NCBI RefSeq assembly: GCF_044324785.1
Contig: NZ_CP172127.1
Strand: one strand, 5' to 3'
DNA: 64,000 bases
Source of the DNA: Escherichia coli
GTDB taxonomy: Bacteria; Pseudomonadota; Gammaproteobacteria; Enterobacterales; Enterobacteriaceae
The position numbers and the translations under genes were made by a program. Of the stretch, positions 8,798 through 59,597 are shown in pieces. Position 1 is the stretch's first letter, and each line of letters opens with the position of its first letter. The notes under the pieces are model-generated. The model searched no databases. It had not been told where the DNA came from and was given only the letters and a program-made list of their open reading frames with translations.

Positions 8798-9176
8798 TGT
8801 TGAACTCCGTGTCAAAAGAAAACGGTCAATCCCATAAACGGCAGATTGAAAACAATGATGTTATATTTTTTGCAAGGCTATTTATGGTGCGGATGTCGTG
8901 TTTTTAATTGTAGGCGAGGTGATTTTTCATTAAAAAATATGCGCTTATGATTATTTTGTAAGAACACATTCATAATATTCATAATGCTCGTGAATAGTCT
9001 TATAAATAATTCAATCGGGATGTTTTTATCTGCGTTACATTAATTTTTCGCAATAGTTAATTATTCCGTTAATTATGGTAATGATGAGGCACAAAGAGAA
9101 AACCCTGCCATTTTCCCCTACTTTCAATCCTGTGATAGGATGTCACTGATGATGTTAATCACACTGACCTTACAGA

Positions 9177-9968
9177 ATGGGCCTTATGAACGCATTTGAT
9201 TCGCAAACCGAAGATTCTTCACCTGCAATTGGTCGCAACTTGCGTAGCCGCCCGCTGGCGCGTAAAAAACTCTCCGAAATGGTGGAAGAAGAGCTGGAAC
9301 AGATGATCCGCCGTCGTGAATTTGGCGAAGGTGAACAATTACCGTCTGAACGCGAACTGATGGCGTTCTTTAACGTCGGGCGTCCTTCGGTGCGTGAAGC
9401 GCTGGCAGCGTTAAAACGTAAAGGTCTGGTGCAAATAAACAACGGCGAACGCGCTCGCGTCTCACGTCCTTCTGCGGACACCATCATCGGCGAGCTTTCC
9501 GGCATGGCGAAAGATTTCCTTTCTCATCCTGGCGGGATTGCCCATTTCGAACAATTACGTCTGTTCTTTGAATCCAGCCTGGTGCGCTATGCGGCTGAAC
9601 ACGCCACCGATGAGCAAATCGATTTGCTGGCAAAAGCACTGGAAATCAACAGTCAGTCGCTTGATAACAACGCGGCATTCATTCGTTCAGACGTTGATTT
9701 CCACCGCGTGCTGGCGGAGATCCCCGGTAACCCAATCTTCATGGCGATCCACGTTGCCCTGCTCGACTGGCTGATCGCCGCACGTCCAACCGTGGCTGAT
9801 CAGGCTCTGCACGAACATAACAACGTTAGCTATCAACAGCATATTGCGATCGTTGACGCGATCCGCCGCCACGATCCCGATGAAGCCGATCGCGCGTTGC
9901 AATCGCATCTCAACAGCGTCTCTGCTACCTGGCACGCCTTCGGTCAGACCACCAACAAAAAGAAATAA
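9177..9968 (+). CDS. nanR: GntR/FadR-family repressor of sialic-acid catabolism NanR
   Basis: 263-aa ORF with N-terminal GntR HTH; directly upstream of nanA and its GGTATA operator. Confidence 0.93.
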
Positions 9969-10031
9969 TGCCACTTTAGTGAAGCAGATCGCATTATAAG
10001 CTTTCTGTATGGGGTGTTGCTTAATTGATCT

Positions 10032-10054
10032 GGTATAACAGGTATAAAGGTATA
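10032..10054. promoter_or_regulatory. NanR operator: three GGTATA repeats in nanA promoter
   Basis: GGTATA at 10032-10037, 10041-10046, 10049-10054 (ggtataacaggtataaaggtata), 36-58 nt upstream of nanA ATG. Confidence 0.75.
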
Positions 10055-10089
10055 TCGTTTATCAGACAAGCATCACTTCAGAGGTATTT

Positions 10090-10983
10090 ATGGCAACGAA
10101 TTTACGTGGCGTAATGGCCGCACTCCTGACTCCTTTTGACCAACAACAAGCACTGGATAAAGCGAGTCTGCGCCGCCTGGTTCAGTTCAATATTCAGCAG
10201 GGCATCGACGGCTTATACGTGGGTGGTTCGACCGGCGAAGCCTTTGTACAAAGCCTTTCCGAGCGTGAACAGGTACTGGAAATCGTCGCCGAAGAGGCGA
10301 AAGGCAAGATTAAACTTATCGCTCACGTAGGTTGCGTCAGCACTGCTGAAAGCCAACAACTTGCGGCATCGGCTAAACGTTATGGCTTCGATGCCGTCTC
10401 CGCCGTCACGCCGTTCTACTATCCTTTCAGCTTTGAAGAACACTGCGATCACTATCGGGCAATTATTGATTCGGCGGATGGTTTGCCGATGGTGGTGTAC
10501 AACATTCCTGCCCTGAGCGGGGTAAAACTAACCCTGGATCAGATCAACACACTTGTTACGTTGCCTGGCGTCGGTGCGCTGAAACAGACTTCTGGCGATC
10601 TCTATCAGATGGAACAGATCCGTCGTGAACATCCTGATCTGGTGCTCTATAACGGTTACGACGAAATCTTCGCCTCTGGTCTTCTGGCGGGCGCTGATGG
10701 TGGTATCGGTAGCACCTACAACATCATGGGCTGGCGTTATCAGGGGATTGTGAAGGCGCTGAAAGAAGGCGATATCCAGACCGCGCAGAAGCTGCAAACC
10801 GAATGTAATAAAGTCATTGATTTACTGATCAAAACGGGCGTATTCCGCGGCCTGAAAACTGTTCTGCATTATATGGATGTCGTTTCTGTGCCGCTGTGCC
10901 GCAAACCGTTTGGTCCGGTAGATGAAAAATATCTGCCAGAACTGAAGGCGCTGGCCCAGCAGTTGATGCAAGAGCGCGGGTGA
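10090..10983 (+). CDS. nanA: N-acetylneuraminate lyase
   Basis: 297-aa [23 protein letters not shown]..., DHDPS-family class I aldolase. Confidence 0.96.
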
Positions 10984-11091
10984 GTTTTTTCCCCTCGCTC
11001 GCCCCTACCGGGTGAGGGGAAATAAACGCATCTGTACCCTACAATTTTCATACCAAAGCGTGTGGGCATCGCCCACCGCGGGAGACTCACA

Positions 11092-12582
11092 ATGAGTACT
11101 ACAACCCAGAATATCCCGTGGTATCGCCATCTCAACCGCGCACAATGGCGGGCATTTTCCGCTGCCTGGTTGGGATATCTGCTTGACGGTTTTGATTTCG
11201 TTTTAATCGCCCTGGTACTTACCGAAGTACAAGGTGAATTCGGGCTGACGACGGTGCAGGCGGCAAGTCTGATCTCCGCAGCCTTTATCTCTCGCTGGTT
11301 CGGCGGCCTGATGCTCGGCGCTATGGGTGACCGCTACGGGCGTCGTCTGGCAATGGTCACCAGCATCGTTCTCTTCTCGGCCGGGACGCTGGCCTGCGGC
11401 TTTGCGCCAGGCTACATCACCATGTTTATCGCTCGTCTGGTCATCGGCATGGGGATGGCGGGTGAATACGGTTCCAGCGCCACCTATGTCATTGAAAGCT
11501 GGCCAAAACATCTGCGTAATAAAGCCAGTGGTTTTCTGATTTCCGGCTTCTCTGTGGGGGCCGTCGTTGCCGCTCAGGTCTATAGCCTGGTGGTTCCGGT
11601 CTGGGGCTGGCGTGCGCTGTTCTTTATCGGCATTTTGCCAATCATCTTTGCTCTCTGGCTGCGTAAAAACATCCCGGAAGCGGAAGACTGGAAAGAGAAA
11701 CACGCAGGTAAAGCACCAGTACGCACAATGGTGGATATTCTCTACCGTGGTGAACATCGCATTGCCAATATCGTAATGACACTGGCGGCGGCTACTGCGC
11801 TGTGGTTTTGCTTTGCCGGTAACCTGCAAAATGCCGCGATCGTCGCTGTTCTTGGGCTGTTATGCGCCGCAATCTTTATCAGCTTTATGGTGCAAAGTAC
11901 GGGCAAACGCTGGCCAACGGGCGTAATGCTGATGGTGGTCGTGTTGTTTGCTTTCCTCTACTCATGGCCGATTCAGGCGCTGCTGCCAACGTATCTGAAA
12001 ACCGATCTGGCTTATAACCCGCATACTGTCGCCAATGTGCTGTTCTTTAGTGGCTTTGGCGCGGCGGTGGGATGCTGCGTAGGTGGTTTCCTCGGTGACT
12101 GGCTGGGAACCCGCAAAGCGTACGTTTGTAGCCTGCTGGCCTCGCAGCTGCTGATTATTCCGGTATTTGCGATTGGCGGCGCAAACGTCTGGGTGCTCGG
12201 TCTGTTACTGTTCTTCCAGCAAATGCTTGGACAAGGGATCGCCGGGATCTTACCGAAACTGATTGGCGGTTATTTCGATACCGACCAGCGTGCAGCTGGC
12301 CTGGGCTTTACCTACAACGTCGGCGCATTGGGCGGTGCACTGGCCCCAATCATCGGCGCGTTGATCGCTCAACGTCTGGATCTGGGTACTGCGCTGGCAT
12401 CGCTCTCGTTCAGTCTGACATTTGTGGTGATCCTGCTGATTGGTCTGGATATGCCTTCCCGCGTTCAGCGTTGGCTGCGCCCGGAAGCATTGCGTACTCA
12501 TGACGCTATCGACGGCAAACCATTTAGCGGTGCCGTGCCATTTGGCCGCGCCAAAAACGATTTAGTCAAAACCAAAAGTTAA
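11092..12582 (+). CDS. nanT: sialic acid:H+ symporter NanT (MFS)
   Basis: ORF 11062..12582 trimmed to ATG 11092 ([19 protein letters not shown]), 496 aa MFS transporter. Confidence 0.94.
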
Positions 12583-12629
12583 TCCTGTTGCCCGGTCTCT
12601 GTACCGGGCCTTTCGCTAAGGGAAGATGT

Positions 12630-31127: not shown

Positions 31128-31239
31128 CCCCGGCTAGACCGGGGTGCGCGAATACTGCGCCAACACCAGGGAAATCTTGGCTGCGCCGTAAATTATTATG
31201 ATGAGTTACAAGGGCACAGCACTGTTTTTCAGGCCGCAC
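31119..31239 (-). ncRNA. arcZ: ArcZ sRNA (RyhA/SraH), Hfq-dependent
   Basis: Minus-strand sequence gtgcggcctgaaaaacagtgctgtgccc...ccccggtctagccggggtcatttttt recognised as ArcZ, 121 nt, 3' terminator hairpin; its 3' end overlaps the arcB stop codon on the opposite strand. Confidence 0.85.
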
Positions 31240-52706: not shown

Positions 52707-52825
52707 AATCTCGCGCTAACAACCTGGAATCGAGCCGTCATACTACGGCGCAACGCCCTATAAAGTAAACGATGACCCTTCGGGAACTTCAGGGTAAAAT
52801 GACTATCAAAATGTGAATTGTAGCT

Positions 52826-52860
52826 GACCTGGGACTTGTACCCGGGTCGGTATTTTTTTG
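52826..52860 (+). terminator. intrinsic terminator inside greA leader (3' end of GraL leader sRNA)
   Basis: gacctggg-acttgta-cccgggtc stem-loop followed by ggtattttttt, about 95 nt upstream of greA ATG on the greA strand. Confidence 0.65.
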
Positions 52861-59510: not shown

Positions 59511-59597
59511 GCCGAGGTGGTGGAATTGGTAGACACGCTACCTTGAGGTGGTAGTGCCCAATAGGGCTTACGGGTTCAAGTCCCGTCCTCGGTACCA
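59511..59597 (+). tRNA. leuU: tRNA-Leu (anticodon GAG)
   Basis: 87-nt sequence gccgaggtgg...ccttGAGgtgg...gggttcaagtcccgtcctcggtacca with long variable arm and acceptor-stem complementarity; 14 nt after secG. Confidence 0.93.

Follow-up and report, generated by a model that had tools for sequence, protein, structure and literature searches.

The 23-bp segment at positions 10032-10054 of the 64,000-nucleotide stretch analysed here (hereafter the window) is a non-random cluster of three GGTATA direct repeats, and is almost certainly the operator at which NanR binds to control the nanATEK-yhcH (nanQ) operon. Published work already covers this operator together with its binding stoichiometry, the effector of NanR and the regulon, and nothing about the site is biologically new. 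What the analysis offers is confirmation that a scan of raw sequence can recover a real operator known from experiment, with only small comparative increments, namely the invariance of the control region in a diverged Escherichia lineage and the invariance of the 23-mer in Enterobacter.

The repeat array and the nan locus

A pattern search of the plus strand located GGTATA at 10032-10037, 10041-10046 and 10049-10054, together GGTATAACAGGTATAAAGGTATA, exactly where the original prediction had placed three copies within 23 bp; positions 10030-10057 read ctGGTATAacaGGTATAaaGGTATAtcg. The spacers are ACA and AA, giving start-to-start distances of 9 and 8 bp. NanR operators are defined as GGTATA direct repeats (PMC3658417; PMC8012715), at least two and canonically three, with spacers of 2-3 nt, and all three copies here are perfect. 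Because the lone hexamer occurs 23 times on the two strands of the window against 15.5 expected, single copies are uninformative. First-order Markov simulation of the window, by comparison, never produced a same-strand triple within 30 bp in 300 runs; the analytic expectation for such a triple is ~5e-5 per window and ~0.004 per 4.6-Mb genome. The 23-mer is unique in the 64-kb window even with three mismatches allowed (0 of 100 shuffles matched), and a three-hexamer scan tolerating up to three mismatches in total returned 10032-10054 alone, with no further NanR site in the window.

Six plus-strand open reading frames around the array exceed the NCBIfam curated cut-offs for NanR, NanA, NanT, NanE, NanK and NanQ/YhcH, with gene boundaries taken from RefSeq E. 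coli counterparts and then checked within the window (Table 1). The predicted location of nanR directly upstream was borne out by its family match. The operator lies within the 121-bp nanR-nanA intergenic region, the promoter region of the nan operon, beginning 63 bp past the nanR stop and finishing 35 bp short of the nanA ATG; its description as immediately upstream of nanA was therefore imprecise, since it covers the putative -10 region of the promoter and does not adjoin the coding sequence. The accompanying claim of an operon packed with overlapping start and stop codons holds for two of the four junctions, nanE/nanK and nanK/nanQ (both -4, ATGA), but not for nanA/nanT and nanT/nanE, which are separated by 108 and 47 bp. 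A promoter and terminator scan of 8800-11200 found no plus-strand terminator in either the nanR-nanA or the nanA-nanT gap, and a search at Rfam gathering thresholds gave no match in the nan region. The gene scores, the RefSeq boundaries and the identity of the 121-bp intergenic region to K-12 uphold the assignment of 10032-10054 to NanR.

Table 1. Features of the window, with positions counted from its first letter
Feature	Position	Strand	Basis or remark
nanR, NanR regulator	9177-9968	+	NCBIfam NF003011, 408.9 bits (cut-off 260); ATG start, TAA stop, no internal stops
CRP-like site AGTGAAGCAGATCGCA	9978-9993		8 of 10 specified bases of TGTGA-N6-TCACA; centre 9985.5
Dam site GATC	10027-10030		1 nt 5' of repeat 1; second GATC at 9987-9990, inside the CRP-like site
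Extended -10-like element TGGTATAAC (TGnTATAAc)	10031-10039	+	T10031, repeat 1 and its spacer; putative choice of hexamer
NanR operator GGTATAACAGGTATAAAGGTATA	10032-10054	+	K-12 identity; Enterobacter identity; PMC8012715; PMC3658417
nanA transcription start, predicted	10046-10047	+	placed only by spacing after TATAAC; between repeats 2 and 3
nanA, N-acetylneuraminate lyase, 297 aa	10090-10983	+	TIGR00683, 571.5 bits (cut-off 382)
nanT, sialate:H+ symporter, 496 aa	11092-12582	+	NF003024, 947.8 bits; start from RefSeq counterpart
nanE, ManNAc-6-P 2-epimerase, 229 aa	12630-13319	+	NF002231
nanK, ManNAc kinase, 291 aa	13316-14191	+	NF047821, 510.3 bits; nanE junction GCTATGACC
nanQ/yhcH, N-acetylneuraminate anomerase, 154 aa	14188-14652	+	NF040884, 233.1 bits; nanK junction TTATGATG
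Fimbrial subunit-like ORFs	15488-16153, 16150-16722, 20008-20790	-	NCBIfam
Fimbrial usher	16735-19176	-	NCBIfam
Fimbrial chaperone	19188-19889	-	NCBIfam
ArcZ sRNA	31132-31239	-	Rfam gathering threshold
greA leader	52737-52858	+	Rfam gathering threshold
Two tRNAs	59511-59594, 63380-63453	+	Rfam gathering threshold
rimP leader	63545-63645	+	Rfam gathering threshold

Identity with K-12 and conservation in other genomes

The 180 bp from 9939 to 10118, which include 30 bp of each flanking gene, are 100% identical to E. coli K-12, so that the site shows no difference from the characterised K-12 operator. A 181-bp query (9940-10120) aligned along 179 bp with laboratory strains of K-12 at 100% identity; of the 5409 E. 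coli genomes that it matched, 5233 reached 99% identity or more. The 5.8-kb nan region as a whole was matched in 5,413 of 5,426 complete E. coli genomes. The exact 23-mer was found in no paper by a literature text search, and the supplements of Horne et al. (2021; PMC8012715) write the operator as '(GGTATA)3' without the oligonucleotide sequence; because the 23-mer is not printed in the text searched, the link to the published site rests on K-12 sequence identity together with verbal descriptions. Compared with the K-12 nanA operator (Kalivoda et al., 2003, 2013; Horne et al., 2021, PMC8012715), the 23-bp sequence, the intergenic region and the gene order nanR-nanATEK-yhcH are the same here, whereas the surrounding genes are ~2-3% diverged, NanR carries the substitution T206A and the DNA past yhcH is unrelated to K-12 yhcG.

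Direct alignment with one K-12 locus gave 25 nucleotide differences over 792 in nanR, 30 over 894 in nanA and 44 over 876 in nanK, against none over the 121 intergenic positions. At the local rate of 2.8%, the probability of seeing zero differences is ~0.03 for the 121-bp intergenic region and ~0.006 for the 9939-10118 run, the latter being a post hoc value. This pattern would fit purifying selection acting on the whole nanR-nanA control region, and recent recombination could alternatively account for the identity of 9939-10118. Nucleotide identity to K-12 is uneven along the locus (nanK 95.0%, nanQ 96.1%, nanA 96.6%, nanR 96.8%, nanT 98.2% and nanE 98.7%), which suggests a mosaic with a history of recombination.

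To examine the array beyond E. coli, species genomes (100,044 in all) were scanned for GGTATA-N2-3-GGTATA-N2-3-GGTATA, yielding at least 120 loci; E. coli is absent among the matches listed, and a NanR homologue is adjacent at four of the loci listed. In two Enterobacter genomes (L012 and L106), whose NanR and NanA share ~83% and ~90% protein identity with those of the window, the 23-mer is identical. Alignment of the intergenic regions leaves an invariant block, tctGGTATAACAGGTATAAAGGTATAtcgtt, comprising the 23-mer and flanking tct and tcgtt, while positions between it and the CRP-like site, and those downstream, vary; the block is a clean phylogenetic footprint of the operator.

The same operator recurs within the published three-operon sialoregulon (PMC8012715; PMC3658417), with which the K-12 operator set agrees. 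Upstream of K-12 nanX (yjhB) stands the identical 23-mer and upstream of nanC a near-copy, GGTATAACAGGTATAAAGGTGCA, with a degenerate third repeat. These operators, of nanXY (yjhBC) and nanCMS, belong to loci outside the window and lie ~410-420 bp before their start codons, as against 35 bp at nanA. All three K-12 operators share the tGATCt junction (tGATCtGGTATA) and a similar ~30 bp upstream.

This shared junction bears on a reading in which NanR is secondary and the element is mainly an epigenetic switch set by Dam methylation, or serves a different regulator, NagC for instance. Repeat 1 has a GATC 1 nt to its 5' side here, as it has at the other two K-12 operators. One study reports NanR binding no more than 5 bp from the GATC sites at nanA, nanC and yjhB, changing methylation at these GATCs, and lower nanC and nanR expression in a dam mutant at 72 h (PMC5155068). 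However, that study itself calls the effect of methylation on NanR binding experimentally undemonstrated, binding of NanR to the repeats has been demonstrated directly (PMC8012715), and Enterobacter sp. Bisph1 lacks the GATC (ttgctctGG) with its 23-mer intact. Since the GATC is lost there while the repeats persist, methylation could at most modulate the NanR operator, and we consider a primarily Dam-driven or NagC-type element highly improbable.

Two further matches with an adjacent regulator come from distant lineages. In a Sphingomonadales MAG (L065, 1040-1062, minus strand), GGTATAGTGGTATAACAGGTATA lies ~250 bp from a divergently oriented NanR homologue of at most 236 aa (53% identity), and in a Synergistales genome (L024, 8520-8541, minus strand), GGTATACTGGTATACTGGTATA is flanked on one side by an FCD-GntR regulator of at most 240 aa (35% identity) and on the other by divergent genes for alcohol dehydrogenase and TRAP DctP. 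Both triples are perfect and both regulators retain R59, R69 and R73; because of an in-frame stop upstream, neither regulator can encode most of the N-terminal extension, 32 residues long, that NanR has. No nan genes were detected near either triple at E below 1e-10.

A broader reading of the 180-bp K-12-identical run, set as it is in genes diverged by ~3%, would invoke further elements under constraint in the nan control region, in addition to the CRP site and the NanR repeats, for example a Dam-methylation switch at the GATC abutting repeat 1 or a 5' leader element at 10055-10089, or else recent recombination. It would add that, since the two distant regulators lack most of an extension reported to be necessary for cooperativity among three dimers, the triple-repeat architecture may have a greater age, or a more flexible mechanism, than the E. 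coli model implies. We regard this combination as rather unlikely.

Many of the other loci listed (L050, L051, L017, L062, L079, L002, L011 and others, from Bacteroidota and other MAGs) are long tandem arrays with 8-bp or 27-bp periods that contain GGTATA, such as L051, where the pattern occurs five times in succession at 6-123, and L002 (Pseudoalteromonas), with matches 27 bp apart. Arrays of 8-bp period made up the bulk of the matches listed. These long arrays were set aside as irrelevant to NanR, as no NanR homologue lies nearby.

NanR binding and promoter geometry

NanR binding to the repeats, its stoichiometry, its cooperativity and its effector are known from published work on E. coli NanR. 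Three NanR dimers bind (GGTATA)3 cooperatively, with a Kd of 20-39 nM and a Hill coefficient of ~2 (PMC8012715). Oligonucleotides with two or three repeats are bound, those with one repeat or lengthened spacers poorly or not at all, and higher-order complexes are lost when residues 1-32 are removed (PMC8012715). Neu5Ac, on binding to NanR, makes its hold on DNA 28-fold weaker, and cryo-EM structures of NanR on the operator are available as 6WFQ and 6WG7 (PMC8012715).

The NanR encoded in the window is identical at 262 of 263 residues to the protein in PDB 6ON4, 6WFQ and 6WG7: the 25 nucleotide differences in nanR produce one amino-acid change, T206A, located in the effector domain, and residues 1-205 are identical. 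Nothing is altered in the N-terminal extension or at the residues proposed to contact DNA (S33, E58, R59, G68, R69, S71, R73, N89 and E91), and binding and Neu5Ac release in this T206A lineage would be expected to follow those of E. coli NanR. FadR and other FadR-subfamily GntR regulators (FadR-DNA, PDB 1HW2) have in common with NanR a winged-helix domain and major-groove recognition by helix alpha3, and the N-terminal domain of NanR can be superimposed on FadR-DNA to 0.98 Å (PMC8012715). FadR-type proteins, however, place one dimer on a palindromic site, whereas NanR places three dimers on direct repeats and makes them cooperate through an N-terminal extension, a mode of binding unique among the GntR regulators described (PMC8012715).

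The repeats also carry promoter-like sequence. TATAAC (10034-10039) and TATAAA (10043-10048) each match the -10 consensus at five of six positions, and the first of these forms part of the extended -10-like element in Table 1. The nanA promoter has no good -35 and was for that reason missed by a consensus promoter scan of 8800-11200. From sequence we infer which -10 hexamer is used, where transcription starts and where CRP sits. The CRP-like site is the best-scoring match within 9900-10090 and is conserved in both Enterobacter intergenic regions (L012 and L106); counted only from the predicted start at 10046/10047, it would be centred at -60.5 or -61.5, a plausible class I position (CRP sites of that class are centred near -61.5, -71.5, -82.5 or -92.5). 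The nan genes are reported to be controlled by both CRP and NanR (PMC10334811), and we infer that this CRP control is exerted at 9978-9993.

The -10 matches invite a reading in which the array is nothing other than stacked, overlapping -10-like TATA(A) hexamers in AT-rich intergenic DNA, with the GG incidental and no role for a repressor. Three observations argue against it: the full GGTATA, GG included, occurs three times at a fixed distance of 8-9 bp, and Enterobacter keeps it unchanged while adjacent AT-rich positions drift; two further K-12 operons under NanR control carry the 23-mer, near-identically in the case of nanC; and NanR binding needs two or three repeats and spacers that have not been lengthened (PMC8012715). 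An array without repressor function is accordingly an explanation to which we give very little credence, less than to the Dam-based one. The promoter and operator roles of 10032-10054 coexist and do not compete. One review states that the three-repeat sequence overlaps the -10 element and that repression is by steric occlusion (PMC8786299), although the operator geometry is worded differently in PMC8012715; through a -10 within repeat 1, bound NanR would plausibly occlude RNA polymerase.

With 10032-10054 taken as the NanR operator, the following sequence of events can be proposed. NanR, the product of the gene just upstream, would bind as three dimers, each centred on one GGTATA. N-acetylneuraminate entering the cell would bind NanR and lock it in a conformation of much weaker DNA affinity, and the promoter would then be freed, probably aided by cAMP-CRP bound ~60 bp upstream. 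An RNA-structure reading of 10020-10095 was rejected, as a hairpin spanning the repeats was no better than in shuffled sequences (z = -1.2; 25 of 200 shuffles as good). Least probable of all, and in our judgement negligible, is a slippage-prone short tandem repeat (a chance duplication or phase-variation tract with no sequence-specific function), which would suit the array reported by Tandem Repeats Finder at 10032-10054 (period 8, 2.7 copies, score 39) but not the lack of copy-number variation among the E. coli genomes matched by the 181-bp query, the identical array in another genus (Enterobacter) or the conservation of unequal spacers (3 and 2 nt) that slippage would not preserve.

Other features of the window

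Among the 5,426 complete E. coli genomes, even the best match shares only ~98% identity with core genes of the window (nan, gltBD, arcB, rpoN and others), and almost none reaches 99% (regions 8900-14700 and 14650-39000 tested). The DNA therefore comes from an Escherichia lineage beyond the phylogroups that are well sampled, or from a near relative that is not classed as E. coli.

Downstream of nanQ/yhcH, positions 14653-15460 give no alignment with K-12 yhcG and are 91-97% identical to a region that other E. coli strains have annotated as a transposase and a DUF1016 N-terminal fragment; the segment marks a variable junction where the nan operon ends. On the minus strand at 15460-20790, where K-12 has yhcADEF/gltF, NCBIfam matches identify a chaperone-usher fimbrial cluster. 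When 14660-18650 was compared by sensitive blastn with every complete E. coli genome, only the first ~800 bp gave a match, and with essentially no nucleotide match in those genomes the 15.5-20.8 kb segment is therefore a divergent fimbrial allele or a replacement. ArcZ, the greA and rimP leaders and the two tRNAs (Table 1) are all expected in this chromosomal neighbourhood.
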